This document shows positions 5,524 through 21,535 of a stretch of 64,000 bases of DNA, one piece after another (within the stretch, counting starts at the first letter, position 1; each line of letters opens with the position of its first letter). The position numbers and the translations under genes were made by a program. The notes under the pieces are model-generated. The model made no database searches. It saw only the letters and a list, made by a program, of their open reading frames with translations, and had not been told where the DNA came from. Source of the stretch: Candidatus Thorarchaeota archaeon. GTDB taxonomy: Archaea; Asgardarchaeota; Thorarchaeia; Thorarchaeales; Thorarchaeaceae. The stretch is from the NCBI GenBank assembly GCA_048882045.1, contig JBHLRZ010000007.1:49935-113934 (forward strand), written 5' to 3'.

Positions 5524-6237
5524 ATGCAGTTTGAGAGCATTGTGATACGAGTTTTCGATGTAGACTTCATGTTCCTTGACTTAGCATTCACAATATTCTG
5601 GATTGCACTCCTTTATAGACGAGGTTACATCAAGCCCTTGCTGTTTGGTGTCTTGGGCATCATCTTGAACTTCATCATAGACTATGGAATCTGGTACAGT
5701 GTCATGGGAATTCGAACACTTGAGGGACTTCCAATCTGGATGTCACCTCTCTCCTTCTTCGTGTACTTCTCAATAACATATGGTATGGTCCAGTACTCAT
5801 ATGTGCAAGTGATGTTCTCATTCCAAAGTACAGACGAGAATAGTGAGAGGTGGAGGAGATATAGATGGTCAGCCCTCCTCTTCGGCGGATGGTTGGTCAT
5901 TGGCTTCATCTCATTCTTCTGGTCTTTCATGGATTCAGAAGTGACCGTCATCAGATACATGAACGAACAGCGATTCATCGAGGTCGCGGTCGTCATTGCA
6001 ATGTACGCGCTCTTGGCATATCTTGCATCGAGGAAGAAGTTCGACCTCAATCTCAGACGAATTGCATACATATTCTCGGTTGGATTCTTCGTTCACTTCT
6101 CAATGGAATTCACATTGCTACTAAGTGGTATTCGAAAGTCGGGAGTATTCGACCTTGTCTTCAACAGTTTCTTAGAGTTCAATATGGGCACACCTCTCCT
6201 CTATCTGATGCTTGTTGGACTTGTCCCAATCATCTAA
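5524..6237 (+). CDS. Uncharacterised multi-pass membrane protein
   Basis: About 7 hydrophobic segments in a 237-aa ORF. Confidence 0.7.
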   Translation: MQFESIVIRVFDVDFMFLDLAFTIFWIALLYRRGYIKPLLFGVLGIILNFIIDYGIWYSVMGIRTLEGLPIWMSPLSFFVYFSITYGMVQYSYVQVMFSFQSTDENSERWRRYRWSALLFGGWLVIGFISFFWSFMDSEVTVIRYMNEQRFIEVAVVIAMYALLAYLASRKKFDLNLRRIAYIFSVGFFVHFSMEFTLLLSGIRKSGVFDLVFNSFLEFNMGTPLLYLMLVGLVPII

Positions 6238-6261
6238 AGAAAGTTCAAGAGAAATGGGTAA

Positions 6262-6693
6262 CTACAGGGATTTCCGAAAGAAAACCTCTCCTATTCCTCC
6301 CTCATTGATTCCAGATATAATCCCACATTCTTCAAACCCAATTGAGCGGTGCCAAGCCTGAGGTTCAGGTTCGTTTGCTTGGGAAGAGCTATACAACTGA
6401 TCATGTCCCCGGCTCTTCAAGTATTTCTCTAAGAAAGAGATTATCTTCTGACCGATTCCTTCATGTCTATAGAGTTCGATGACAAAGATGACTCCGATAT
6501 ACGGTATATTAGACCAGAGATACTCTAGTCTCAGATACCCAATTGGTTCACCATCGAGTTCTGCTATGATGATCTCATCCTGGACTATCTTGTTGCGGAT
6601 CACCTGTTCCGTCACATAGTCATCTTCTACTACACACCATTCAAGGTCTTCAGGTCCAGCAAACCTCACAACGACCCTATCATACACACTCAT
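6262..6693 (-). CDS. GNAT family N-acetyltransferase
   Basis: Motif A VIELYRHEGIG; N...AWHRSIGF motif B. Confidence 0.88.
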   Translation of the reverse strand: MSVYDRVVVRFAGPEDLEWCVVEDDYVTEQVIRNKIVQDEIIIAELDGEPIGYLRLEYLWSNIPYIGVIFVIELYRHEGIGQKIISFLEKYLKSRGHDQLYSSSQANEPEPQAWHRSIGFEECGIISGINEGGIGEVFFRKSL

Positions 6694-6853
6694 CCTAACT
6701 CACTGTTCCAAATCTAGGATGTCAATGCATCTGAAGTAGGTTTCGAATTCATTGTTCAGAAAATGATATATCGAGAATGGAAGTTAGAAATTGTAATTTC
6801 AGTGGTCTAGGAGTGTGAGATAAGAGACCATTCTAGGTGTAGGTGGCTGAATC

Positions 6854-8815
6854 TTGCGAAGAAAGATCCTAATTGTCATCATTTTCCTCCTGTCTACTCT
6901 AATCCCCTCTCCAATGTTTGACTCAAAATTAGGAAAGGTTGCAGAGGGAGTATCAGGAACCATAGAGTATCATACCATTGCATATACTCGACATGATCCC
7001 ATCTACATTGCATCAGACGCAGAATTCATTGCACAGGCTGCTTTAGAAGGGTGGCCTGGGGACGGTTCAGAGTCCAATCCCTACAGAATTGAAGGCTACA
7101 ACATTACTCACACGGGATTCATCATCCAAATTGAAAATGTCACTATGTTTTTTGAAATTAGGAACTGCTACCTGGCTTCAAATTCGTCAGGGGTGCACAT
7201 CGAAAGCTCCTCAGACTGTGAAGTATATTCCAACGATTTCGATAATGCAAGTATTGAGATATGTGACAGCGGTAATTGTGAAATCTATTCAAATGAATTC
7301 TATAATGGATCTGAGATACGAATTAACTGTTGTTTTCAAGTTTCGGTATCAGACGTTAGAGTCATTGCACCATCTGACCAGGGGATACTTGTTAGCAACT
7401 CAAGTCACTGCAATATCTCTAATTCCATATTATATTCATCACCAATAGCCGGGATTGTTGCAATGGATTCGCTCTCCTGCTCCTTTACTTCCAACACCAT
7501 ATCACATTGTCAGAATGGCATACTAATTTGCAACGATACCTCCTCATCTCTATTTACTAACAACTACATATTCAATCAATCAGAGTATGGAATAAAAGTT
7601 GAAAGTGGTTCTGATAACTGGATATATGCGAACATCGTAGCTAGTGAAGGAACAGGATTTTTCCTGGACGATGGTGTTCAGAATCACTGGGATGATGGAT
7701 TTTTCCTAGGAAACTTTTTGCCTGGAATAACTGAAGGAATCTTTCCCATAGACGGTTCTGCTGGGAGCGAGGATCAATTTGCAAGGCCAGTAGACCCAGA
7801 GCCAGTTGAAGAGCCAGTAATCTGTTCAGATCCGATACTGGTGAAACTCGGTGATTTTGATGGAATTCTAGCTTGTGTGGTTTGGCTGAGAGAAGAAACT
7901 CGTCTGTATAGGTTTGAGATTATCAGAAACAGATTCTACATAAATGGAGCGTTTGATCGAGATATTGAATGGTCAGGTCCATGTACTATTGTGATTGATG
8001 TAGAGGGTTTGGCTCCAGGTATTTACGAATTCAGCCTATTCCAAGATCTCTGGGTTCCCCCCTTCGATGAGGGGGAAATACATCTGTTTGATTTTACAAC
8101 CTACCTTCCCGGATTTTATTCTCCTATTGATAATGATGCTGATGACATGTTTGATGAATGGGAGATTGAGCATGGTCTGGATCCTTTGAGCAATGATAGT
8201 GAAGATGATCCCGATAGTGATGATCTCTCCAATCTTCATGAATTTATGTGGAACACTGATCCACAAAATCCCGATACGGACTCAGACCTCATGCCAGACG
8301 GATGGGAAGCTCACTACGACCTGCGACCATGGGTCGATGACTCGGGATTGGATAAAGACTCAGATGGTTTGTGCAACCTCGATGAGTATCTTCATGGAAC
8401 GGACCCAGAGGATAGCGACTCAGATTCCGATTCGATAACGGACGGATGGGAGGTGACCTTTGGTCAAAATCCATTGGATCCCTCTGATGCATTGATAGAT
8501 TCCGATGCTGATACTCTAACAAATCTCCAAGAGTTTCTACTTGGAACCAATCCAACTAGTCCAGATTCTGACTTCGATTCTTATCCTGATGCTTGGGAGG
8601 TGCGCTATGGATTCGATCCACTTACCCCTCCTGATACAATGTATGAAGAGATCGCATATTTTGCACCTTTCATTATCACTGGATATCTGACTCTTAGTGC
8701 CATATCTGTGGTGACAATAGTCATGAATCGAATGGGAAAGATGCTCCTAAAAGAGCAGAGCCAACTTGATGAAGAGGAAGAGATCAAGCGTCAACTTCAA
8801 GCTCTGATGTCTTGA
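6854..8815 (+). CDS. Surface protein: signal peptide, parallel beta-helix (NosD/CASH-like), TSP3-like Ca-binding repeats, C-terminal TM anchor
   Basis: [12 protein letters not shown], Asn/Ser/Cys-rich beta-helix repeats, multiple DxDxDx(L/M)xDxWE...GxDP repeats, TM near C-terminus. Confidence 0.85.
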
Positions 8816-11427
8816 TCTCTATATTCCTCAGGATTCTTGTCGAAGGTTTCTTTACAGTAAGGATTGCAGAAGTAGTACCTCTTTCCTTCATAGTCAGAGT
8901 AGAGATCAGCGGATGCAATGTCGACTTTCATGTTACAGATTGGGTCGATTGCTACATCTCCCTCAAGGTAGGCTGCAGGAGGAACTCCTTCTTCCTTTAA
9001 TTCCACAACCTTAGGCTTAAACCTATTCAGTGTAAGAGCGTTTGCTACAACACTGACACTTGATAGTGCCATTGCTAGTCCTGCAAATTGCGGCTGAAGA
9101 TAGAGACCGAGAGTAGGGAAGAGAAGTCCTGCGGCTACTGGAAGGAGAATGATGTTATAGATAAGTGCCCAGAAGAATCCCTGTTTGATCTTTGTCATTG
9201 TCTTCTGACCAAGTTGAATTCCTGTGACAACATCCATGAGGTCATCCTTTACTAGGACAATGTCCCCTGATTCCACAGAAACATCGGTGCCTGAGCCTAG
9301 CGCAATGCCAACATCAGCTTGAGCTAGAGCTATCGCATCATTGACACCATCGCCTGTCATTGCGACAATCTTTCCCTGAGCTTGAAGTTTCTTGATTTGT
9401 TCTGCCTTCTGATCAGGAAGGACCTCGGCCAATGCATGTTCAATACCAACAGATTCTCCAATCGCTTTGGCGGTTATCTCCCTGTCACCTGTAATCATCC
9501 AGACATCGATACCCATACCTTTGAGTGTACTCACAGCCTCTACCGAGCTTGGTTTCAGATCGTCAGCAATTGCCAAGACTGCAAGCTGCTTTCCATTGAC
9601 AGACGCATAGATTACTGTCTTCCCTAGTTGCTGGAATATTTCTGATTGGTCATCAATGTTGGAAAAGTCCACTCCGAGATCTTTCATGAACTGTTGACTG
9701 CCAACAGAAACAGTTTCTCCCTCAACAACTGCACTCACTCCTTTCCCAGTAGTGTATTGGAAATCTTCTGATTGTGGAAAAGCAATTCCCCTTTCATTGA
9801 CATAGTAAACAACTGCTTCTGCCAAAGGATGTTCGCTGTTCTTTTCCACCGATGCAATGAGTCGAAGAGATTCCTCTTCTTTATAGCTCCCCACAGTGAT
9901 GACATCGGTCACAGTCGGTCTTCCTATGGTGAGAGTTCCAGTCTTATCGAAAACAATTGTATCGATTTCTGGGATTATTTCAAGACCATCTCCTGTCTTG
10001 ATTAGGATTCCATGCTGAGCTCCCTTTCCTATACCAACCATAATTGCAGTAGGAGTGGCGAGTCCCAGTGCACACGGACAAGCTGCGACCAGAACTGCAA
10101 TTGTAAAGTTGAGTGCAAGGTCCCATTGAACGTTCATGACGAAGACCCAGAACAGGTATGTGGCAATCGAGATGACCAGAACAATGGGCGTAAACACCTC
10201 TGCGATTGAGTCTGCCTTTCGCTGGATGGCTGGCTTGTTCGTCTGAGCCTCTTCCACCATTCTGACAATCTGTGAGAGGACAGTGTCCTGACCTACCTTG
10301 GTAGCCTTGACTCTAAGAACTCCATTCTTATTGACTGTGCCACCTACAACAGAATCGCCCACTGTCTTATCAACAGCAACCGACTCTCCAGTGATCATCG
10401 ACTCATCAACCGAGGACTTCCCTTCTAGAACACTTCCATCAACAGGTACTCGATCACCCGGACGAACTAGGACAAGATCATCAACTTCGACATCTTCAAT
10501 GGGTAGAATCAGTTCTTCTCCATTGCGAATCACAGTTGCAACTTTAGCCTGAAGATCCATCAATCCTCTAATGGCCTTTGATGTGCGTCCTTTTGCAACC
10601 GATTCTAATGTGCGACCCAGTAGTATGAATGAGATCAGCAAGACAGCAGCATCATAGAAGGGGGCATAGCCAGAAAGGACGAATGTTGTTGCAACCGAGT
10701 AACCATAGGCTGCAGTTGTACCCAGCATTACAAGAGTGTCCATATTTGTCTTGAAATGTCGTAATCCTCTGAGTGCTGCTTTGTAGAACGGGTATCCTCC
10801 AATGAACTGAACAGGAGTTGAGAGGAAGAACATCAGTAGCATTTTCGTACTTTCTAGAGGAATCAGCGCATTAAGTACTCCAAAGTGGATTAGAACTACA
10901 GGAATCGTTAGTATCACTGAGAATGTTAAGAGTGTAGCATAATATCGGATTTCTTTTTCTCTTGCGAGGGATTCTCTATCTCTCTCCACACCCTCACTAG
11001 ACTCTAATTTGAAACCCAGACTCAGAATTGTCTTCCGAACAATCTTGAAGGTGACCAAATCCTCGTCGTATTCGATTAGTAGACGTTTTGAATCAGGATA
11101 GCTCCTCGCTGTTATTACTCCTTTTATCTGACTAACTGCAGTGGTAATCTCATCCCATTGAGACTCACTAGGACTTTCAGAAAGCGTTAAAGTCATCGAT
11201 GCTCTTCGAGCGCGATAACCAACGGAATCCACAGCCATTTCCAACACAGACCGATCTACTGAATCTGCGTAATATTCGACAACAGCTTTCTCATCGAGAA
11301 GACTTACACTAGCTTTAATCACACCATCTTGAGAAAGCAGTGACTTCTCAATTGTGGCAACACAGGAAGCACAATGCATTCCTTCAATTTTCATCGAAAG
11401 TCTTTCGGGAGTTTCATTTTTGGTCAT
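8797..11427 (-). CDS. copA: Cu(I)/Ag(I)-translocating P1B-type ATPase with N-terminal HMA and C-terminal YHS/TRASH domain
   Basis: GMHCASC, TGES, CPC, DKTGT, SEHP, GDGVND, YN and MALSS motifs; C-terminal DPICNM...YYFCNPYC. Confidence 0.96.
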
Positions 11428-11453
11428 CTATTTTACAATCCTTTATGCAATAT

Positions 11454-11503
11454 ATTATATCGTTGTAGATATATAGACGTAGATATATCGGTGTCGATAT
11501 ATA
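11454..11503. promoter_or_regulatory. Operator array of GATATATC-like palindromes in 14-bp phase upstream of copA
   Basis: attatatc 11454, gatatata 11468, GATATATC 11482, gatatata 11496. Confidence 0.75.
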
Positions 11504-11546
11504 AGTTTTTTGATTGGGCGGGTTTGGAAGGAAACCATATTGTCAA

Positions 11547-12017
11547 TTATAAACTCTGTTTGAACGCTTTTGCACAATGAACACAACAAAAAGTAAGATT
11601 TGTTCCATTGACTTCTTCGTAGTGCGCGCCTTCGAAAACCCTAGCTCCACAACTTGCACAAACCTCTAGGCTGGACCCGAGGGCAGATACTGTGATCGCA
11701 GCAAAACGTTTGAATAACTGGTTGCTAAATCGCTCTCCTTTCTTCGTCATTGAATAGACAATCTTACGTTTCTTCCCTATGTCTTCTTGCTTCTGGGTGA
11801 CCAGCTTCTTTTCTTCGAGTTCCTGCAAAAATGGGTATAGTGTTCCTGGACTTAATTTCTTCCCAGTTCGTTTTTCATAACTTTTCATAAGACCATAACC
11901 ATGCAATGGCTTTTCGTTCAACATCAACAAGATATAGAAATGCGAGAAATCAGCTAGTATTTCCTGAATGTCAGGATGGGGCACTTTCATGTCTTGAATT
12001 GTTTTTTCATTCGTCAT
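11547..12017 (-). CDS. PadR-family winged-helix regulator with C-terminal TRASH metal-binding domain
   Basis: PLHGYGL...SPGTLYPFLQELE...RKIVYSMTKKG; C-terminal CASCG...TFCCVHC. Confidence 0.9.
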   Translation of the reverse strand: MTNEKTIQDMKVPHPDIQEILADFSHFYILLMLNEKPLHGYGLMKSYEKRTGKKLSPGTLYPFLQELEEKKLVTQKQEDIGKKRKIVYSMTKKGERFSNQLFKRFAAITVSALGSSLEVCASCGARVFEGAHYEEVNGTNLTFCCVHCAKAFKQSL

Positions 12018-12206
12018 TTTTGTGTCAACCCAAGGAAGCTCGAATATTTTGAGTCACACAGATAAGGAATAAAGAAGTTCCCGTGTGTGACATATAATCC
12101 AATCCACGAAGCATTTTCCTATAATAGTTGCCTATTTGATTAAACTCTTCCCGATCATGCCGAGAAATGGACTACATTATATGAGATTTTGATGAGTAGC
12201 AATATA

Positions 12207-12402
12207 AATGTATCTTAAGGGATATATCCATAGGGATAATTAATGCCTGCTCTCAGGAATCCCACCGGGGCTCTATCAATGTTAGAAACAGATTTCGGAT
12301 AAGAAAAGCCAATATAGGGTGCCCGACAGAATATTTATATATATCGAGTGGGATATATCTGATTGGATACTATTGTTTGCGATATATCTGAAGAGATTTA
12401 CA
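12207..12402. promoter_or_regulatory. Two GATATATC operator arrays in the divergent regulator / YHS-lon promoter region
   Basis: aatgtatc 12207, GATATATC 12221, gataat 12235; tatatatc 12338, GATATATC 12352, gatac 12366, GATATATC 12381, gattta 12395. Confidence 0.72.
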
Positions 12403-12421
12403 TAAAGCAGAGGCAAAGGAA

Positions 12422-12577
12422 ATGGCTAGAGACCCAATATGTGGAATGATAGTAGATGAGAACACAACCAAGCTAAAGACAGTTCATAAAGGAGAAACTT
12501 TCTACTTCTGTATGATGAGCTGCAAGAAAGCCTTTGACAGTGATCCAGATCGCTTTGCCATCGAATCCACAAATTAA
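12422..12577 (+). CDS. YHS/TRASH domain small metal-binding protein (51 aa, not in ORF track)
   Basis: Hand translation MARDPICGMIVDENTTKLKTVHKGETFYFCMMSCKKAFDSDPDRFAIESTN*; preceded by aaagga. Confidence 0.9.
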   Translation: MARDPICGMIVDENTTKLKTVHKGETFYFCMMSCKKAFDSDPDRFAIESTN

Positions 12578-12598
12578 TAATAGAGCAGGAGATTATCT

Positions 12599-15052
12599 AT
12601 GAAAAAACTGACACCAGAAGAAATTCGGGTTCGTTGTGATGATAGGGAGTTTGCATGCAGAACTAGTGCAGAGCTTTTTCCCCTAGATAATATCGTTGGA
12701 CAGAAACGTGCTCTTGAATCATTGCGATTCGGACTAATGATAAAGGATAAGGGATTCAATGTCTTTGTTGCGGGTATTCCAGGAACTGGTCGCACCACTG
12801 CAGTTTCAAAATTCCTTCAAAATCTTGCAACAAACGAATCGAATGCATCAGATTGGTGCTATGTAACCAATTTCGAGAATCAGTATCACCCACGGGCTCT
12901 TGAGCTTCCATCAAGTAGAGGGATGCAATTAGAGCAGCAAATGGAGAGCTTCATTGAACTTGCTCAAATGACGCTTTCTGAGATGCTGGAAAGTGAGGAA
13001 TATATTATACAAAGAAATCAACTTCTGAAGGTTTTCAAAGACAAACAGCAGGAAATAAGCAATCAAATGGAAAATGAAGCACGAAAAAACGGGTTCATAT
13101 TGCAAGGTTCTAAGACGCGACTACTCTTACTTCCAATAATCAATGGTGAGCCTCTCGATCCTGAAGCAAACGTCCACCTGCCCAAGGAAATCGAAGAGAA
13201 AATCGCAGAAAATCGTGAAGTCGTGGAAAAGCAAATGCGAGTGCTTTTCCGCAAGTTACGTCTTATTGAACGTGAACTTCGTGAAGCTCTTCAGAATAAA
13301 GAACGAGAAGCTGTGCTTTACGCCCTCTCCCCACTTATTGATGACCTTAAGGAGAACTTCAGGGATCTGCCAAGGGTTACACAGTGGATTCAGGAAGTAG
13401 CTGAGGATATCACCGAACATCTTCAGGAATTCATCGGACTCTCAGAAGTTGATTCATCAGATGAGCTGGATTTATCGCAATCGGGATCAATCACACGGGA
13501 AGATTTCACTCATAGATATAGAGTGAATCTGTTCGTTGATAATTTGGGAGCAGATGGCGCTCCTGTTGTAATCCTTGCAAATCCTTCTTATAACAACTTA
13601 TTTGGTGTAATAGAGAAAGAACCACGATATAGCGGACTTAGAACAGACTTTTCTATGATTCGCCCAGGAGCCCTGCATAAGGCAAATGGTGGTTATCTAG
13701 TTGTTCCAGCACTGGAACTTCTAACTTCTCCACATGTCTATCAATCTTTGAAGAGGGCCCTTGAACATAGCGAGATAGTTATCGAAGAACCTCAGGAATC
13801 AAGCAACTTCTTTACTGTGAAGAGTTTACGTCCGGAACCAATCCCATTGGATGTGCAAGTAATTCTAATTGGCGAGGAAGAGATTTACCAAGAGCTTTAC
13901 AATAAGGACCCCGAATTTCGGCAACTTTTCAAGGTAAAGGCAGAATTTGACATTTCGATGGATCGCACGCCTGAAAACATCCATGTATTTGGCTCGTTCA
14001 TTTGTATGATTCACTCAAGGGAAGGGCTGAACCCTTTGAAAGCAGACGCCATTGCAGAAGTAATCGATTATAGCTCCCGCCTAGCGGAGAATCAAAACAA
14101 GCTCTCTATAAGATTTGACATAATAACTGACATCATTCGCGAAGCAAACTTCTATGCGAGCGAAGAAAAAAGCATCACCATAGAAAGAGATCATATCGAA
14201 AAAGCCATCCGTCAAAGATTATACCGATTGAATCTTTATTCAGAGAAGGTTCGTGAGCTCATTAAGAAGAATATCATTTTTATCGATCTTGAGGGGGAAA
14301 CTGTAGGACAAGTAAATGGACTTTCGGTGGTCACTCTTGCAGGTCATACTTTTGGACAAACATCTCGAGTTACAGCTAGTATATCCCCAGGGCACCAGGT
14401 TGTAATAGATATTGAACGTGAATCAAATCTTGGTGGTCCGATTCATACAAAAGGAGTACTCATACTTGCGGGATATCTTGCTAATCGATACGGAAGAGAA
14501 AAACCACTTAGTCTTTCTGCGCGGATTGTCTTTGAGCAGAGTTATGGAGGCGTTGAGGGAGATAGTGCAAGTAGCACAGAACTGTTTGCAATTTTATCTG
14601 CTCTTTCAGGAGTACCTATCCAACAGAGATTTGCTGTAACTGGCTCCGTCGATCAACATGGACGAATTCAAGCTGTGGGAGGAATTAATGAAAAGATTGA
14701 AGGATTTTACGAACTCTGTAAAGCAAAAGGTTTGACCGGGCATCAAGGAGTCTTGATACCAAAAACCAATATTCAGAATTTAATGTTATCAGATGAAGTA
14801 GTTGAAGCTGTTAGGATGGACTCATTCCACATTTATGCAATAGAAAATGTGGATGAAGGCATTGAATTGTTAACTGGTGTACCAGCAGGCAGAAGTCAAG
14901 AGAATGGAAACTATTTGCCAGGATCAATTAATGCAATGGTGGATGAGTTTCTGGTTCGAATGGCCAAAATTATGGAAAAGTATTCTACTGAGAATCACAG
15001 CAAACATGAAATCTCTACTACACCACAACAAGTGACGTTCTCTGGAGGCTGA
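12599..15052 (+). CDS. Lon-like protease, LonC/AAA_32 type (soluble, degenerate ATPase)
   Basis: VGQKRAL, Walker A variant GIPGTGRT, coiled-coil insertion, PGALHKANGGYL, catalytic dyad GDSASS and GGINEKIEG. Confidence 0.92.
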   Translation: MKKLTPEEIRVRCDDREFACRTSAELFPLDNIVGQKRALESLRFGLMIKDKGFNVFVAGIPGTGRTTAVSKFLQNLATNESNASDWCYVTNFENQYHPRALELPSSRGMQLEQQMESFIELAQMTLSEMLESEEYIIQRNQLLKVFKDKQQEISNQMENEARKNGFILQGSKTRLLLLPIINGEPLDPEANVHLPKEIEEKIAENREVVEKQMRVLFRKLRLIERELREALQNKEREAVLYALSPLIDDLKENFRDLPRVTQWIQEVAEDITEHLQEFIGLSEVDSSDELDLSQSGSITREDFTHRYRVNLFVDNLGADGAPVVILANPSYNNLFGVIEKEPRYSGLRTDFSMIRPGALHKANGGYLVVPALELLTSPHVYQSLKRALEHSEIVIEEPQESSNFFTVKSLRPEPIPLDVQVILIGEEEIYQELYNKDPEFRQLFKVKAEFDISMDRTPENIHVFGSFICMIHSREGLNPLKADAIAEVIDYSSRLAENQNKLSIRFDIITDIIREANFYASEEKSITIERDHIEKAIRQRLYRLNLYSEKVRELIKKNIIFIDLEGETVGQVNGLSVVTLAGHTFGQTSRVTASISPGHQVVIDIERESNLGGPIHTKGVLILAGYLANRYGREKPLSLSARIVFEQSYGGVEGDSASSTELFAILSALSGVPIQQRFAVTGSVDQHGRIQAVGGINEKIEGFYELCKAKGLTGHQGVLIPKTNIQNLMLSDEVVEAVRMDSFHIYAIENVDEGIELLTGVPAGRSQENGNYLPGSINAMVDEFLVRMAKIMEKYSTENHSKHEISTTPQQVTFSGG

Positions 15053-15951
15053 TGAGTATGACTAAGCAAAATATCCTCATCAAGAATCTGGAGGGATTGA
15101 ACAAATCCATCTTCTTTAGAACAATGATAGCCCCATTAGAACCTCAGATAATAAAGCAGGAAGTAGTACAATCTGAGCACTTCATAGATTCCGACATCAT
15201 CGTCGAGTTTCTAGAAAATCGTACATACTTGCCTGAGTTTGACTATATCGGTTATGAAGTAAAAACTGTTGATCGTGTTAACGCAGTATATTTAATGATA
15301 AATCCAGATCCATTGAATCTTGATTATGTACCAAAAAACAGTCTGGTTATTTGCCATCACAAAATTTCTACTCACAATAATCGTATCTACAAAAAAATGC
15401 TTGACCACGCAAGAAATTCAAAATTCAACATTTACAACTTCCACCTGGGGTGGGATATTATGGAAGGTGGAATCTTAGATTCATTTCTGTTTGACTTTGG
15501 ATTATCTCATCATGATTTCGAAAAGGTTGATCTTACATATCGAGGTTATCTAATTCCTCAATTAGGAGCTATATTCAAAAAAAGGTTAACAATGGAGGAC
15601 ATAATTAACAGACTTTACATGATGAATGTCCAGCTATCAGTTATCATTAATCCACAATGCAAGGCATCCAAGGTTGGATACATACCTGGTGGTGGTTTTG
15701 TTGATGATATGGTCATAGAAATGGCGGATTTAGGTGTCGATGTTCTCATTTCATCAGACCATAATTGGGTAGTTGAAACTATTGCCAGAGAGGAAAGGAT
15801 GACCCTAATTGAGATTGACCATTATCGCAGTGAACGTCATGGTTTACGAACAATGAAGAACCTCCTTGAGAACTCATTTTCAAACATTCCCATCAATATC
15901 CTAGAGAATGTTGATGGAATGGAACGAGCTCCATGCGATTGTAATTCTTGA
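15052..15951 (+). CDS. NIF3/DUF34-like dinuclear metal-centre protein
   Basis: ICHHK, FHLGWD, IPGGG, ISSD, IDHYRSE; start overlaps the lon stop (TGATG). Confidence 0.75.
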   Translation: MSMTKQNILIKNLEGLNKSIFFRTMIAPLEPQIIKQEVVQSEHFIDSDIIVEFLENRTYLPEFDYIGYEVKTVDRVNAVYLMINPDPLNLDYVPKNSLVICHHKISTHNNRIYKKMLDHARNSKFNIYNFHLGWDIMEGGILDSFLFDFGLSHHDFEKVDLTYRGYLIPQLGAIFKKRLTMEDIINRLYMMNVQLSVIINPQCKASKVGYIPGGGFVDDMVIEMADLGVDVLISSDHNWVVETIAREERMTLIEIDHYRSERHGLRTMKNLLENSFSNIPINILENVDGMERAPCDCNS

Positions 15952-16069
15952 GGAATAAACATCCAAGAAGAACTGTCGTTGGTTAGAATTTAGTGTTAAA
16001 TAGCGAAGTCTTGTTGCATGTTGGCTCAAACATACCTCTTCTATGATCGTTTCTTCAATTTACTCATTT

Positions 16070-16969
16070 CTAATCCATCTTTGATTGAACTCTCTTCGCC
16101 CGAACGATCTTTACATTAACAATAATGTGGCTAGGGTTGATACGTTCCTGATTCTTGGTTTTAATGTAATAGAGTAAAATCAACAAGATATATCCAACAT
16201 ATGCAATGACCTCAATGGCTGAAGGATTCCCATTGTAACCGAATAGAGCTTTTGCGAGTCCACCAATAAGACCTTTCTCATGCAAAAGTGGATAACTGCC
16301 ATCTGGTAATAATGGAGGATTGATGTTCCAAAGTTCACTTGGACCTAAGGCTAAGAAACCTACTTCTTGAAGCTCATGAATACCATAGGCAATCATTCCA
16401 GCGGCAAATAATACCAAAAGGAAAGAAGTTGAATTGAAGAATGATTTTAGACTGATTCGTAATGAGCCTTGATAGATTCCAAATCCGACGAAGGCTGCGA
16501 ATATTAACCCCAAGGCTACTGCAATAAAAGTCGTATAGCCTTCTTGGATTGCTAATGCAGCTGAGAACAGGACTAATTCAACGCCCTCCCGCAAAACAAG
16601 AGCAAAAGCAAGAATGGGTAGACCGAGTTTCCCTCCCACAGTCCTCTCCTCAACGGATTGTCTGATTTCTGTGGTTAGGTTTGTACTCGCCTTTCTCATC
16701 CAGAATATCATAGAAGTCAGGAGAAATGCAGCAAATAAAACAAGTGACCCCTCAAAGACCTCCAGCATTGGTCCTTCAAATGACCCCCAAATCACCCCCA
16801 GCACAGAAGCTAATCCGATACTTGTGATTATTGCAAGTAATGTGCCGCTGATGATGCTACGATTCATATTCTCTCTGCCAGTCTTGCGAAGATAAGAGAA
16901 CATTATTGCAATGACAAGAGCAGCTTCAATACCTTCACGCAGTGCAACAATGAATGGTGCAATGAACAT
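16070..16969 (-). CDS. FTR1/EfeU family iron permease
   Basis: Two RExxE motifs (LREGIE, LREGVE), GIHELQE, ALFGY. Confidence 0.92.
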   Translation of the reverse strand: MFIAPFIVALREGIEAALVIAIMFSYLRKTGRENMNRSIISGTLLAIITSIGLASVLGVIWGSFEGPMLEVFEGSLVLFAAFLLTSMIFWMRKASTNLTTEIRQSVEERTVGGKLGLPILAFALVLREGVELVLFSAALAIQEGYTTFIAVALGLIFAAFVGFGIYQGSLRISLKSFFNSTSFLLVLFAAGMIAYGIHELQEVGFLALGPSELWNINPPLLPDGSYPLLHEKGLIGGLAKALFGYNGNPSAIEVIAYVGYILLILLYYIKTKNQERINPSHIIVNVKIVRAKRVQSKMD

Positions 16970-17128
16970 TATAGAATCCCCCTATCATGGAATATTCCTA
17001 CTCGTCTAGCAGAAATTGACTTCGGAGAATGCCACATAACATAATGTCTATGCTTCTCTAGTCTATAGATAAACGATATAGAAGACCCATTGATTTCCTT
17101 TTTTGGATCCACAACTCTGCTCATGAGT

Positions 17129-17521
17129 TCAACCTCCTCCTGTACCAACCAAAAATACGATTGTGTCACCTTCATCGAGTCTTCTATTCATTTTTTCTTT
17201 TGAATCGAGTCCCATTCTTAGTTTCCAACCCGTTACGATTATTTTCCCATTAACTATGATTATTGTTTCATTACTGAGGGTTTTGCTTTTCTTCTCGTCT
17301 AGATACGCATCCAATGAATAAACAAACTCACTCATCAAGTGATCAATGAGATCAGTGAGCGAAGTTCCTTCTTGAATATGAAGTGGAAATTTGTTATAGT
17401 TTGATTCTCTTAGGCCCCTATTCAACAGCTTAATGAAGACTTGAATCACTGAGTTTTTCCCCTTCGATAGTTTTTGTCTAGAATACAACTTTGGCTTGTT
17501 GTAAATTTTCGAGAGTGTCAT
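17129..17521 (-). CDS. MoaD/ThiS/Urm1/SAMP-like ubiquitin-fold protein with C-terminal GG
   Basis: GTSLTDLIDHL, IIVNG, LDEGDTIVFLVGTGGG-stop; true start may be ~24 codons downstream. Confidence 0.8.
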   Translation of the reverse strand: MTLSKIYNKPKLYSRQKLSKGKNSVIQVFIKLLNRGLRESNYNKFPLHIQEGTSLTDLIDHLMSEFVYSLDAYLDEKKSKTLSNETIIIVNGKIIVTGWKLRMGLDSKEKMNRRLDEGDTIVFLVGTGGG

Positions 17522-17552
17522 ATTGTAGAATTCCTTCTTTGATATGCATCTC

Positions 17553-17738
17553 TTAGCCGCAGCAACCTCGTCGGGGTATTGCTACTATTCTACGCTGTGA
17601 ATAGAAATCGGGGGAATCATCAAAACTTGTTTTGCATGACTGCTTGCAGAAATAGTATCTTTTTCCCATGTAGTCAGAATAATACTTAGTTACGTTTTCG
17701 TTAACCTCTAATCCACAAACTGGATCTTTTACCATCAT
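17553..17738 (-). CDS. YHS/TRASH domain small protein with GCCG tail
   Basis: DPVCGL...YYFCKQSCKTSFDDSPDFY...RRGCCG. Confidence 0.88.
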   Translation of the reverse strand: MMVKDPVCGLEVNENVTKYYSDYMGKRYYFCKQSCKTSFDDSPDFYSQRRIVAIPRRGCCG

Positions 17739-17859
17739 TATATCACCTTCAGTTCCAGTTCTACTCTTGTGCTTTCAATATTCAAGATCTTGGTTAACGA
17801 GCATTGCCATCAAATAGGCCAATTGTTCACCCAATCTCTTGATTCTATATTACCACAAG

Positions 17860-17937
17860 GATATATCGGAACTGTATTATTATGGCACGCTTCAGCTTAT
17901 AAATATATCGTGTTAGATATATCTTGCATGATATATA
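17860..17937. promoter_or_regulatory. GATATATC operator array in 14-bp phase upstream of the YHS-Ubl-FTR1 unit
   Basis: GATATATC 17860, aatatatc 17902, GATATATC 17916, gatatata 17930 (offsets 42, 14, 14). Confidence 0.75.
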
Positions 17938-18030
17938 ATTGCGTTAGTAATTCAAAAGAAAAAAGAGAGAGAAGTGGGAATCTTCTCCCGCCCATTTAAA
18001 AATTGCACAATAATCCTTAGGCTAAGGTCC

Positions 18031-18183
18031 TTACTCTTCAATTCCCACTTCTAGATTGTATTTCTCAGGATTGGCATCAAACATCTTCTTATGCTCTGAG
18101 TTCATAAAGTAGTAGGTCTTGCCCTTATAGACAGATTTGATGTTTGGTTTACCCATCATACCGCAAACGGGACATTTTGACAT
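18031..18183 (-). CDS. YHS-like small protein with altered ligand set (50 aa, not in ORF track)
   Basis: Hand translation MSKCPVCGMMGKPNIKSVYKGKTYYFMNSEHKKMFDANPEKYNLEVGIEE*. Confidence 0.85.
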   Translation of the reverse strand: MSKCPVCGMMGKPNIKSVYKGKTYYFMNSEHKKMFDANPEKYNLEVGIEE

Positions 18184-18259
18184 TTTTTCTTCACCATGTG
18201 TCCAGATCATCTATTCCCATTCAGGATATAGAGTACCCACCAATTGGAGGGCACTCCCA

Positions 18260-18365
18260 TTTATATCCATAGAGATATATCGTAGACGACTATGTCAATG
18301 CCACAAGCAAATATAAATCTATCGTACTAGATATATCCAAGCGGATTTATTCAAGTTGATTATAA
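18260..18365. promoter_or_regulatory. GATATATC operator array in 14-bp phase upstream of the third YHS gene
   Basis: tttatatc 18260, GATATATC 18274, aatctatc 18316, GATATATC 18330, gatttatt 18344, gattataa 18358; all offsets are multiples of 14. Confidence 0.75.
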
Positions 18366-18444
18366 ATTAGTAGTTCATCTATTCTTTTGGTATGAGTTGT
18401 ATTGAAGACATTCGAGTTCATTGGAACTCAAAATCGTCTCATTA

Positions 18445-19032
18445 CTAGCCAACGAAGTATTCGCTTTCCTTCTCATTCGCAGCTTCACTCATCATTCTTA
18501 GAAGCTCATGAAAGGTGTCCTGAATATTAGCCCCAGTCCTTGCAGAGGTTTCTCGGAATATTGCTGGGACTCCGAGTTTGTTGATGAAGTACTGTGTGAA
18601 TGCCTGACCTTCTTCTGGAGTTACATACTTTTTCTTGTCGAGACTCGTTCTCAGATCTATCTTGTTACCGATAATTACAGTTGGTGGAAGTGGCCCCATG
18701 TTCCTAAAAGCTTCAACCAGCCATTTAGAGGCATTATCAAATGACTCACGATCGATTACAGAATACACAAGTAGGATTCCGTTGCAGCCAGCATAATAAT
18801 GACCTCGCACTTTCTCGAAAGTCGGCTGACCTGCCAGGTCCCAAATGATGAACTTGACAACATCCTGCTCGAACAACACACGCTTGGTAGCGAGGTCGAC
18901 ACCGATTGTGGCAAGGTGTCCCTCGATGAAGTCCTCTCCAAGATAATTGCGTCTGATACTTGTCTTTCCGACAGCTCCGTCTCCAATAAGGACTGCTTTC
19001 ATGATTTTGCTGCCGTCGTCTTGGTCTCGCAT
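18445..19032 (-). CDS. Rab-like small GTPase
   Basis: GDGAVGKT, TIGVD, WDLAGQ, NKID, TSAR. Confidence 0.93.
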   Translation of the reverse strand: MRDQDDGSKIMKAVLIGDGAVGKTSIRRNYLGEDFIEGHLATIGVDLATKRVLFEQDVVKFIIWDLAGQPTFEKVRGHYYAGCNGILLVYSVIDRESFDNASKWLVEAFRNMGPLPPTVIIGNKIDLRTSLDKKKYVTPEEGQAFTQYFINKLGVPAIFRETSARTGANIQDTFHELLRMMSEAANEKESEYFVG

Positions 19033-19191
19033 GTCGTGGATCTCCTCAGTACCTTGTTGGCGTGATGTAGTTCACAAGCCCTCCCGAATAATGTGACTAC
19101 AGAAAATGCAAAGCTTGGTGCAAGATAAGGTTAATGTTCTAGAACCAAAAAGAGCTTGTGATAGGAATCCCCATCAAACATCATGTGATGG

Positions 19192-20418
19192 TCACTCAAA
19201 TAGAGAACGTATTATCTTAGTCATCTTTCGAGGACTAACAGATCCAATCTTAATTCTTTCACAAGAATGAAACGTAGCAAAATCAGAAACACCTTGCCTG
19301 AGTCGCTCTAAACCATCGCGAGACTGCAATGATTCTTCTTCCAAGTAGAGTGATTTAATCTCAAGTACTCCCTCTTTTCTATGAACCTTAGCATCTAATC
19401 TGCCAGCCAACTGGATCCCATCTAGAATGGGAAGCACAAAGTATCCATAGATGCGTTTTGAAGCAGGAACATAACACTCGATTGTGTATTCAAAGTTCCA
19501 AATTTGTTGAGGAAAGTGCCTCTCACGAAGAATGTTGTCAAACGGTGTAAGAATCTTGATAGGCGCTTCATCAGAAACAACATTCTGATTGAGTAGAGCA
19601 TCAACAGAACTCTGGAGTATGTAGTATTTACCCTTCACACCCTCAATGGAAACGGTCTCGAGAGCACCATCAGAAACCTTTTCATCCAAGAACGCTTCAA
19701 CCTCGGTCTTCTTGCCGTTCCAGAGTTTTTGCGCAGGAAGGCGTCCGAGGTATGTACGAATGTCCTGATAGTTTCCCAGACCCAACGAACCAAGGGTTGT
19801 CTCAACTATGAATCTTGCAGCCTCATCATTCGAAAGTGGTTCTGTATCAATCCCGGGAGGGATTACTCGTTCTGCGAGGTCGTACTGCTTCTGGAAGTTC
19901 TCCCTGTAGGCAACCATCAGTCTTCCAGTTGTATACAGATATTCCAATGCTCGTTTCTCAACCTTCCAGTCCCACCAACCATCTGACTTTGTCTTTCGCT
20001 CTCCAACAGAGGCACTGTTTGTAATCCCCTCCTTCTTAACTTTCTTGTAGACTTGCTCGATGAGACCCTTGTTCTCTTTGCCCCACTTTCGGAACGACGC
20101 CCAGAGTTCCTCGGGGTAGAAAGATCGCCTCCACGCATAGAAGGGGTAGGTCGCTATAGGCATCAGACAGGCAGAATGGGACCAATACTCGAAGAGCTTG
20201 CCCTCCTTCTGCAGTTCCCAGATGTCACCCTCTCGATAATTGGGATAGCGATTGAATGAGATGAGGTTGTGACTTCTTGACACTACTGATATCGTATCGA
20301 TCTGGATGCTGTGGATCCGATTGGCTACATCCAACGTGGACTTGCTTGGCTTGTCGGTTCTGAGACCCTGTGCATCAAGAACCAGTCTCCTTACGTCCTC
20401 GATGGATGCTTCAATCAT
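19192..20418 (-). CDS. ycaQ: YcaQ/AlkZ-like (HTH_42) crosslink-repair DNA glycosylase
   Basis: IQIDTISVVSRSH (QxD), FEYWSH, GWWDWK, YDLAERV, LTPFDN, ECYVPASKRIYGYFVLPIL, GRLDAK. Confidence 0.88.
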   Translation of the reverse strand: MIEASIEDVRRLVLDAQGLRTDKPSKSTLDVANRIHSIQIDTISVVSRSHNLISFNRYPNYREGDIWELQKEGKLFEYWSHSACLMPIATYPFYAWRRSFYPEELWASFRKWGKENKGLIEQVYKKVKKEGITNSASVGERKTKSDGWWDWKVEKRALEYLYTTGRLMVAYRENFQKQYDLAERVIPPGIDTEPLSNDEAARFIVETTLGSLGLGNYQDIRTYLGRLPAQKLWNGKKTEVEAFLDEKVSDGALETVSIEGVKGKYYILQSSVDALLNQNVVSDEAPIKILTPFDNILRERHFPQQIWNFEYTIECYVPASKRIYGYFVLPILDGIQLAGRLDAKVHRKEGVLEIKSLYLEEESLQSRDGLERLRQGVSDFATFHSCERIKIGSVSPRKMTKIIRSLFE

Positions 20419-20614
20419 GATTGAGTATCCAGATAGCGCCCCCTGATAATTTCATCCCTCAAAGAAAACGAGGATATCAGATGCAGATAAAGCCTCAGTC
20501 AAATTCCTCGTTCAACATAATTGGCTACGCGGTCAGCACGAGAGGCATCCCCTCCCTCCCCAGCTGATGGGAGTGTAGATATTATAAACAAGCTATCACA
20601 TTGGAATATCAATT

Positions 20615-21535
20615 ATGTGTGGGGAAATGATAATGGTGATTGTTGACGCTCATTGCCATATATGGGAAAAGAAACACCAAGGGTCAGTGTTTATCAAAGA
20701 CTTTCAAAGCCTCGCTAAAATGCGGGGTTGGGATCTAGAACTGATGATGGATGGGACGGCGAACCGCTTAATTTGCGAGATGGATGAGGCCGGAATCGAT
20801 CAAGCGGTAGTCTTGGCGTTAGATACTGAATTTATGACTACGGACGGGGCGACAGCGAAGGAGTACAATGATTACGTCGCTCAACAGCTTCGAGCGTATC
20901 CCGATCGGTTTATTGGGTTCTGTGGGATCGACCCGCGGAGAGGGAAGGGAGCCATCCGCGAGTTGGAGCGCTGTGTCGGGGATCACGGGTTCCGCGGAGT
21001 AAAACTGTGGCCTCTCACCGGGTTCTATCCCGACGATCCTGCATTTTATTCATTTTATGAAAGGGTGGAGGAAATGGGCATCCCGATCCTGTGCCATACA
21101 GGCCGGGGCTCGACTTCCACGTACTTGAAGTATAATCGCCCGGTGTATGTCGACACCATCGCAGTGGATTTTCCCCATATTCCCATTATCATGGCGCACA
21201 TTGGGATCCCATGGACGCAGGAAGCCTTCACCGTGGCTGGGAAAAATCCCAATGTCTATGTTGATCTTTCTTCGGTTCAACCTCTGTTCAAACAAGCGCC
21301 TGTGTCGTTTTTCCAAACCCTTAGCGAGGCGAAAATGACGTGCGGGGTGGAAAAGATTCTGTTTGGGAGCGACTGGCCGATCTTTACGCCACTCTGTCCC
21401 CAACGCGAGTGGGTAGAAGCCATCCAAACCATGGCCCTCCCACCACCCCTTCAAGCAATGGGGTTTCAGGAGTTTACGGAGGCCGAGAAACGTCTGATTC
21501 TCGGAGGTAACGCCAAAAAAGCTTTGGGGATATAG
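20615..21535 (+). CDS. Amidohydrolase_2 family metal-dependent hydrolase
   Basis: DAHCH, GFRGVKL, CHTG, MAHIG, NVYVDLS, LFGSDWP, ILGGNA. Confidence 0.92.
   Translation: MCGEMIMVIVDAHCHIWEKKHQGSVFIKDFQSLAKMRGWDLELMMDGTANRLICEMDEAGIDQAVVLALDTEFMTTDGATAKEYNDYVAQQLRAYPDRFIGFCGIDPRRGKGAIRELERCVGDHGFRGVKLWPLTGFYPDDPAFYSFYERVEEMGIPILCHTGRGSTSTYLKYNRPVYVDTIAVDFPHIPIIMAHIGIPWTQEAFTVAGKNPNVYVDLSSVQPLFKQAPVSFFQTLSEAKMTCGVEKILFGSDWPIFTPLCPQREWVEAIQTMALPPPLQAMGFQEFTEAEKRLILGGNAKKALGI

Follow-up and report, generated by a model that had tools for sequence, protein, structure and literature searches.

The window analysed here is a 64-kb stretch of DNA on contig C7 of a Thorarchaeota metagenome-assembled genome (G000, 3.63 Mb, 93 per cent complete), and its subject is a gene island in which a copper pump (CopA) and a PadR-TRASH regulator lie beside two operons of less expected content. 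A first-pass annotation, made from the letters alone, had read this island as a metal-stress regulon joining copA and the regulator to small YHS proteins, a LonC protease, a NIF3 protein, a ubiquitin-like protein (Ubl) with a Gly-Gly end, and an iron permease. Our Pfam search of the window proteins identified every gene so named, with the Ubl assigned through the scores of its relatives and its predicted fold. The island also holds the five TRASH/YHS domains that had been counted in it: one each in CopA, the PadR-TRASH regulator, and the small proteins YHS1, YHS2, and YHS3. A six-frame family search of the whole genome found four YHS domains, all of them inside the island.

The first two genes are on the minus strand. 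The copA gene (8797–11427) encodes a P1B-1 ATPase for Cu(I)/Ag(I), with an HMA domain at its N-terminus, the E1-E2 ATPase and hydrolase domains, and a YHS domain at its C-terminus. It is followed by the gene for the regulator (P0004, 156 aa; 11547–12017), a putative Cu(I) sensor that matches Pfam PadR and Ta0938/TRASH. The next three genes run along the plus strand. YHS1 (51 aa; 12422–12577; Pfam YHS, 47.7 bits) is the first gene of an operon that continues with the LonC-type protease (P0001; 12599–15052; LonC_helical, AAA_32, LonB LID, and Lon_C) and the NIF3/DUF34 protein (P0002; 15052–15951; Pfam), whose start overlaps the LonC stop. A convergent operon on the minus strand comprises YHS2 (17553–17738; 54.8 bits; C-terminus RRG(G)CCG), the Ubl (106 aa, ending in GGG; 17129–17449, with a likely GTG start at 17449), a small open reading frame (ORF) of fifty-one codons (16969–17124) that was absent from the first-pass gene list, and an FTR1-family iron permease (16070–16969; 163.8 bits). 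The last member is YHS3 (18031–18183, minus strand; 33.4 bits), which carries the ligand set CPVCGMM...YYFMNxxH and probably starts at M10 of its longest ORF (18031–18210). An Rfam scan of positions 6000–21000 returned just two sub-threshold chance matches.

The regulator consists of a PadR winged-helix domain (58.1 bits against a cut-off of 27) joined to a TRASH domain. The metal-binding pattern of the latter (C-x2-C...CC-x-H-C; residues C120, C123, C144, C145, H147, and C148) is invariant in fourteen homologues, from Thorarchaeota to Bathyarchaeia. The family is large (over 250 protein clusters among Asgard and Bathyarchaeia), and our literature search, which was not exhaustive, found no account of a PadR-TRASH fusion. 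In the CopA translation we read the Cu(I)/Ag(I) signature, made up of the motifs CPC, YN, and MxxSS. Because of these motifs, the invariant Cys and His residues of the TRASH domain, and the confinement of all the genome's YHS domains to the island, the regulon most likely responds to copper.

The palindrome GATATATC occurs twelve times in the window, where 1.46 copies are expected, and none of 100 shuffled versions reached twelve. Genome-wide there are ninety copies, eight of which fall in the roughly 1 kb of intergenic DNA within the island. The concentration is sharper for in-phase pairs (boxes 13–15 or 52–57 bp apart), with six of the genome's nine pairs in the island. Arrays of boxes lie upstream of all five transcription units, as had been proposed for each putative promoter. 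The copA array (11466–11505, boxes within 11468–11502) has three boxes spaced in 14-bp phase, of which the outermost overlaps a TATA-like element; the padR promoter (12219–12240, box at 12221) has a GGGATATATCC box and a degenerate box immediately upstream of a TATA-like element, which would place the regulator gene under its own control; and the array of the YHS1-LonC(-NIF3) unit (12335–12390, boxes within 12339–12388) overlaps both a TATA-like element and the expected transcription start.

The two remaining promoters, those of YHS2-Ubl-FTR1 (17840–17945, boxes within 17860–17936) and YHS3 (18255–18360, boxes within 18274–18337), repeat a single module some 100 bp long, with 70 per cent mean column identity over seven copies. 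In order, the module has a box and, five bases on, a degenerate box that is fused with a TATA-like element; about 25 bp further come ATAATACAGT and a final box, so that two full boxes 55–56 bp apart (56 bp in the case of YHS3) flank the core promoter; the YHS2 copy reads in the same order, from array to TATA-like element and, some 25 bp on, the closing box. In one related locus (L033), where NIF3 has a promoter of its own, that promoter shows the same layout as judged by eye. The YHS1-LonC promoter is instead an array of the copA type, unlike the YHS2/YHS3 module.

These elements are conserved. The copA array is kept in four other loci (L023, L033, L076, and L080), the padR boxes keep their position in G002 and L033, and boxes in general hold their place across loci whose proteins are 68–91 per cent identical and whose intergenic flanks have diverged. 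Boxes are likewise conserved in L073, L074, and L081–L085. Two minimal Thorarchaeota loci (L076 and L080), with regulators 64–65 per cent identical to that of the window, have the same 13–14-bp arrays before padR and copA. In a Bathyarchaeia copA-YHS-padR locus, whose regulator is 50 per cent identical, a full GATATATC box precedes copA and a partial one (ATATATC, seven of eight positions) precedes padR. On these comparisons the operator travels with PadR-TRASH, and therefore PadR-TRASH is the probable binder of the GATATATC boxes, with copA as its probable ancestral target. Together with the CopA motifs and the TRASH cysteines, the presence of the operator in minimal padR-copA loci bears out, as far as sequence can, the first-pass claim of a single metal regulon that most likely answers to copper.

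A different reading of the boxes would make them core-promoter (TATA-like) elements, or the sites of some other factor. The motif is AT-rich and overlaps TATA-like sequences, and known PadR operators differ from it in sequence. The phased arrays occur almost nowhere outside the island. In distant taxa, too, arrays or boxes go with padR-TRASH and stand before padR itself, and a full box stands downstream of the TATA-like element as well, near the expected transcription start. We consider this explanation of the arrays extremely improbable.

Other occurrences of the box were examined as possible further targets. Box-pair sites on contigs C5, C75, C57, C6, and C32 were not counted as regulon members, being intragenic or isolated. 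Two GATATATC-like pairs are intergenic, one at G000:C57:2303–2322, upstream of an ORF of 155 aa, and one at G000:C75:3175–3222, between minus-strand ORFs of 88 and 208 aa; each may be a remote target or a chance occurrence. A NosD-like beta-helix gene (6854–8815, plus strand) is convergent with copA, overlaps its 3' end by 19 bp, and also adjoins copA in L076 and L081. Its membership of the regulon is doubtful, and it was not counted, since the single box at 6765 is not conserved in L081 and is partial in L023. Upstream of padR, 33–75 bp from its start, lies an inverted repeat (GTCACAC...GTGTGAC, 12050–12092) with a loop of about 25 nt. This repeat is kept in G002 (L023) and L033; the short upstream regions shown for L076 and L080 do not display it. 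It may act as a leader hairpin or as an additional operator.

The first-pass annotation had proposed a search of gene neighbourhoods in other genomes as a check on the linkage. The linkage does recur, only inside one Thorarchaeota family. Within that family the accessory block is found in at least seven genomes from three genera, and the island keeps its gene order and its flanks in G002, G354, G372, G374, G383, and the genome of L033. Across these genomes LonC is 68–91 per cent identical, NIF3 67–87 per cent, and Ubl 43–79 per cent; YHS1 is 88–96 per cent identical in most island loci and 62 per cent identical in L073 and L085. Full islands are those of the window, L023, L072, L033, L073, and L074. 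In the last three of these NIF3 lies apart from LonC, and in all three it has its own box array; in L033 the two genes are separated by an inserted gene on the opposite strand. These separate NIF3 arrays, and the arrays of the minimal padR-copA loci, weigh most in favour of a regulon.

Other Thorarchaeota have simpler versions of the locus. The minimal arrangement (L076 and L080) consists of an AlkZ-like gene, an Arf-like GTPase gene, padR-TRASH, and copA. YHS3 is added in L081–L083, and G004, G377, and G379 have the GTPase, YHS3, padR, and copA only, an arrangement in which YHS3 appears as the basal chaperone of the cop cluster. A partial island, LonC-YHS1-padR-copA, is found on a short contig of G373 (L085). 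In G366 (L084, contig C228) YHS2 and half of the Ubl gene abut padR, a deletion remnant from which most of the block has gone. Because such intermediate and decayed forms exist, we read the island as a cop cluster that acquired, between YHS3 and padR, an accessory block of about 6 kb made of a convergent pair of operons. Each transcription unit of the block starts with a YHS gene, and the YHS2 and split NIF3 units carry the YHS3 promoter module; for these reasons, duplication of a 'promoter plus YHS' cassette probably accounts for at least part of the regulon's growth.

Some features of these loci stand apart from the block. In Thorarchaeota the left flank of the cop locus is constant: one or more Ras/Arf-like GTPase genes and, after them, an AlkZ-like glycosylase gene. 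There is one such GTPase gene in the window (18445–19032, minus strand) and there are three in tandem at L033:13487–15556; neither the GTPase nor the AlkZ-like genes have operator boxes upstream. In G372 (contig C16; L073) the island-type padR has an in-frame TGA and no adjacent copA, and another padR-copA pair is found at a distance of 5 kb.

The same history could be told without any functional integration. Accessory genes might have collected in a recombination-prone cop locus, each under a duplicated promoter cassette, with little copper tolerance gained. Such an account fits the patchy distribution of the block (PadR-TRASH is found in 32 of the 86 family genomes and island-type, or tier-1, Ubl in 6), the partial and decayed versions, and the duplicated promoter module. 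It fits less well with the retention of boxes at every unit over 68–91 per cent protein identity while the flanking DNA diverged, or with NIF3, which regains or keeps a module of its own once it is split from LonC. All of the gene products are, moreover, related to metals or proteostasis. We regard co-location without integration as quite unlikely.

We favour a single-locus regulon for Cu(I)/Ag(I) in a Thorarchaeota lineage, under a PadR-TRASH protein that binds GATATATC arrays, and give this reading a probability of roughly 65 per cent. It draws its weight from the gene identities, from the enrichment and conservation of the operator and its link to the regulator, and from the way in which the block has been gained and lost in modules. 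The ancestral unit would be an ordinary archaeal cop cluster of regulator, small YHS/TRASH chaperone (YHS3), and CopA, to which a subset of genomes would have added the YHS1-LonC-NIF3 and YHS2-Ubl-(small ORF)-FTR1 operons. The boxes overlap TATA-like elements or expected transcription starts, or else bracket the core promoter, and this suggests that the apo-regulator would repress all five units until Cu(I) binds the TRASH cysteines and releases them. CopA would then export Cu(I), and YHS1–3 would buffer or deliver it in the cytoplasm. LonC would remove or hold copper-damaged proteins without ATP, FTR1 would re-supply iron following Fe-S damage, and NIF3 together with the YHS2-Ubl pair would carry out a step in metal or sulfur handling. 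For LonC and FTR1 we infer these roles by analogy, because the presumed induced set resembles the copper response of Pyrococcus furiosus, and a contribution of the regulon to the repair of Fe/S cofactors is plausible. The effector metal and the sign of regulation would follow from the domains and box positions just described, and for the individual gene roles our confidence is far lower than for the regulon as a whole.

Several observations weigh against this reading. First, GATATATC resembles the archaeal TATA element, and core-promoter sequence could make up part of the signal. Second, the block is dispensable, as the partial form in G373 (L085) and the decayed or fragmentary forms in G366 (L084) and L040 attest. 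Third, the full islands are confined to one family and share their flanks (Arf-like GTPase and AlkZ-like), so their recurrence is largely vertical and does not amount to independent evidence. Fourth, two of the proposed effectors have relatives that live elsewhere: LonC orthologues of 46–54 per cent identity in seven other Asgard genomes adjoin no island gene (the ATPase beside one of them is P2-type and not a copper pump), and other members of the NIF3 subfamily occur in unrelated gene contexts. Last, CopR homologues repress in Thermococcus onnurineus and activate in P. furiosus and Sulfolobus solfataricus (PMC7830388), and since they act either way the sign of regulation is uncertain.

The protease belongs to the LonC type (MEROPS S16, subfamily C) in each respect that we compared. 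Its best solved relative by phmmer is the Meiothermus enzyme MtaLonC (4FWD, E = 1e-94), and it has the helical insertion characteristic of the group (PF20437 LonC_helical, 48.6 bits). The motifs GDSAS and GGINEK align to the catalytic motifs of MtaLonC, leaving the Ser-Lys dyad intact, and are kept across an alignment of eleven orthologous sequences. The ATPase motifs are degenerate: Walker A reads GTGRTT, with Arg in place of Lys, and the Walker B position reads LVVPALE and has no DE, in the window protein and in ten orthologues alike. A locus search seeded with LonC returned just two relatives, 90–91 per cent identical. The C-terminal SGG of the window protein was set aside as a conserved feature, as alignments beyond the closest relatives end at residues 796–805. 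Used as a genome query, LonC found only the island gene in G000 and had no match in 20 of 24 other genomes sampled from the genus, a result obtained with a single protein on incomplete genomes. The same query reaches LonB-like proteins in other Asgard families (E = 1e-21 to 1e-31), so that this genus may lack LonB or have a very divergent one.

The Ubl is a more remote member of its family. It ends in GTGGG, and the Gly-Gly is invariant at the C-terminus in our alignments A1, A2, and A5; an orthologue in G374, outside these alignments, has seven residues beyond GGG. The window protein scores 17.5 bits against Pfam ThiS, below the cut-off of 22.5. Three relatives (P0101, P0102, and P0103), which lie on contigs of 0.6–2.8 kb and became usable after tblastn, score 26.6, 28.4, and 22.8 bits, and P0103 also reaches Pfam Urm1 (21.9 bits, cut-off 21.8). 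A structure predicted from seven sequences had a pLDDT of 55 and was unfit for searching; its replacement, from a 28-row alignment, has a pLDDT of 72 (moderate confidence), and its top Foldseek matches are Urm1, MoaD, and SAMP1 (probability 1.0, TM 0.45–0.57). The protein is a diverged paralogue, with an insertion of about ten residues, of a housekeeping Urm1/SAMP-like protein of 95–96 aa found in 54 of 85 family genomes. In G000 this paralogue is encoded at C3:42527–42811 (plus strand; about 95 aa, ending in VGG, ThiS 27.6 bits), where it stands alone near Mrr-like and GlcD/GlcF-like genes. The genome's sole ThiF-type E1 (G000:C8:31409–32110) is on another contig and has no rhodanese domain. 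By Pfam, the island itself encodes no E1, JAMM, E2, Ubl-receptor, or sulfurtransferase.

The partner of the Ubl is YHS2, whose gene is directly upstream of it in every case. The C-terminal G-C-C of YHS2 is invariant in nine of nine orthologues, eight of which end in GCCG; in G374 (contig C5; L074) the protein continues for eight residues beyond GCC. The pair is also kept on L038, with FTR1 after it, and on L040, with an adjacent NIF3 fragment, where Ubl identity has fallen to 38–44 per cent. A complex prediction for YHS2 and Ubl, both entered as alignments, scored 0.00, which speaks neither for nor against binding.

From the company of Ubl and LonC the first-pass annotation had suggested, as a possibility, a degradation pathway, in which copper-damaged proteins would be tagged by the GG-ended Ubl (by sampylation or urmylation) and delivered to LonC. 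The two units do carry the same operator, the Ubl has the invariant Gly-Gly needed for activation, and the genome encodes an E1. With its degenerate Walker motifs LonC would have no unfoldase of its own, and an adaptor or tag might serve in its place. The genomic arrangement argues otherwise. Ubl and LonC are encoded in separate, convergent operons; the conserved partner of Ubl is YHS2 and not LonC, the pair in L038 and L040 having no LonC within the short assembled stretches; G373 keeps YHS1-LonC beside padR, on its short contig; and the LonC orthologues in seven other Asgard genomes, at 46–54 per cent identity, have no Ubl neighbour. The island also offers none of the usual companions of tagging, such as an E1, E2, JAMM, or receptor domain, and to our knowledge no Ubl-dependent Lon has been found. 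We judge the tagging pathway very unlikely and do not retain it.

NIF3 points in another direction. The window protein matches PF01784 with 67.6 bits (cut-off 23.4), and the ligands of the dinuclear site (H102, H103, D135, H257, and E261) are invariant in eighteen sequences. A phmmer search of the Protein Data Bank (PDB) with this protein gave no match, and a profile of its subfamily reaches the NIF3 structures 3WSD and 4IWG. This subfamily is rich in Asgard members, all of which have a C-terminal C-x-C motif. Among the relatives of the window protein (P0016–P0064, with loci L034:10001–11197 and L035:8001–9650) an N-terminal rhodanese fusion is frequent in Asgard proteins, and one member sits in a CMD-NIF3-ArsR-TusA cluster. 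The word 'rhodanese' is absent from the main text of the DUF34 survey (PMC8469502).

Because the NIF3 subfamily is so often fused to rhodanese, a sulfur-handling role of YHS2, Ubl, and NIF3 seems a better lead than degradation tagging, still at the level of association. In its full form it would be a sulfur relay, with YHS2 (through its GCCG end), Ubl, and the Cys-tailed NIF3 handling activated sulfur under copper stress. The Ubl would then be a thiocarboxylate carrier for Cu-S sequestration, cysteine persulfidation, or Fe-S repair, and would have no part in protein degradation. The paralogy of Ubl with a family-wide Urm1/SAMP-like protein suits such a relay, as do the conserved cysteines at the ends of YHS2 and NIF3, the rhodanese fusions, the NIF3 gene beside TusA and an ArsR regulator, and the NIF3 fragment beside the YHS2-Ubl pair on L040. 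On the other side, the rhodanese-fused relatives are found outside copper contexts, the window NIF3 is without a rhodanese domain, and the island has neither a sulfurtransferase nor an E1, which leaves an argument by association only. A relay of this kind is unlikely, though less so than any of the alternatives discussed above. Slightly more doubtful again is the stronger proposal that the copper switch induces a dedicated Urm1-like protein, a sulfur carrier or modifier acting together with the Cys-Cys-tailed YHS and the Cys-tailed NIF3, whose relatives are fused to rhodanese. If true, it would mean that an Asgard archaeon defends itself against metal stress in part by ubiquitin-like thiocarboxylate chemistry (persulfidation, Cu-S sequestration, or thiol protection of the urmylation type), and would give the Urm1/SAMP and NIF3 families a new physiological role.

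The last gene of the same operon is a clear FTR1 (PF03239), with two REXXE motifs, REGIE and REGVE, in its translation. The small ORF fills the gap between Ubl and FTR1, beginning 5 nt after the Ubl stop and ending with a TAA that overlaps the FTR1 ATG. A frame of 51–73 codons is open at this gap in all eight loci examined, for which shuffling gives a chance of 0.02–0.05 per lineage. Conservation of the peptide is poor, and substitutions fall on the codon positions without bias. The frame is perhaps a coupling spacer that is translated, or else it may encode a His/Arg-rich peptide that evolves fast.

Neither LonC proteases nor NIF3/DUF34 proteins, widespread as both are, have a settled physiological role. 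Their place behind a predicted metal-sensor operator provides a concrete hypothesis for both, namely induction by copper. HcgD, a member of the DUF34/NIF3 family, is an iron chaperone. The island also defines a large PadR-TRASH family together with its probable operator, documents the stepwise growth of a regulon, probably by duplication of promoter-plus-YHS cassettes, and suggests that in archaea related to eukaryotes metal stress has a so far unexplored link to an Urm1-like protein.

Much of the island is familiar from other archaea. With the cop clusters of S. solfataricus (CopR/CopT-CopM-CopA) and of T. onnurineus and P. furiosus (CopR-CopA) it shares a regulator with a C-terminal TRASH domain adjoining a P1B-1 CopA, a small TRASH/YHS or HMA chaperone, and a palindromic operator at the cop promoters and at the promoter of the regulator itself. 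The differences lie in the regulator, where the DNA-binding domain is PadR and not the other helix-turn-helix of CopR (PMC7830388), with CopT also unlike it; in the operator, which is GATATATC in 13–14-bp arrays as opposed to the TTNNCAWWWTGNNAA of CopR (PMC7830388); and in the presence of three YHS paralogues and the added two-operon block. The island is in this sense a lineage-specific expansion of an ordinary archaeal copper-resistance cluster.

The closest precedent for the regulon as a whole is that of P. furiosus CopR, in which a TRASH regulator couples copper export to genes of iron transport, Fe-S assembly, and protein turnover or redox function. In that species copA and copZ are under CopR control, and genes for iron transporters, ferritin, and Fe-S assembly are induced by copper as well, together with class-O genes (PMC7830388). 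The rationale would be the same in both, since Cu(I) attacks Fe-S proteins. ChIP-seq and RNA-seq defined the P. furiosus targets, which are scattered, whereas those of the island stand in one locus and were read from sequence alone. The members differ too, those of the island being LonC, NIF3, the Urm1-like Ubl, and FTR1. The first-pass remark that the combination had not been described holds for this gene set and not for the concept, as a TRASH-regulator regulon reaching past copA is already known from P. furiosus CopR (PMC7830388), just as the archaeal cop cluster is.

The individual proteins likewise depart from their known counterparts in specific ways. The island LonC has the helical insertion, degenerate AAA-like module, and Ser-Lys protease domain of Meiothermus taiwanensis LonC (4FWD; PMC3391209, PMC13069640) and differs in its Walker A sequence (GTGRTT), in being archaeal, and in standing under a predicted metal operator. 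The NIF3 protein has the dinuclear-site ligands of the DUF34/NIF3 family and a metal-related context of the kind proposed in the survey of that family (PMC8469502), to which its subfamily adds the C-terminal Cys motif and the frequent N-terminal rhodanese fusion. The Ubl has in common with Urm1, SAMP, and MoaD the beta-grasp fold (predicted here) and the C-terminal GG, and differs from them in being paired with a Cys-Cys-tailed YHS protein and not with MoaE, an E1, or tRNA-thiolation genes. Set beside these systems, what is new in the island is the PadR-type sensor family with its probable operator, the gathering of every target in a single locus, the inclusion of LonC, NIF3, an Urm1-like paralogue, and FTR1 among the members, and the YHS2-Ubl pair.

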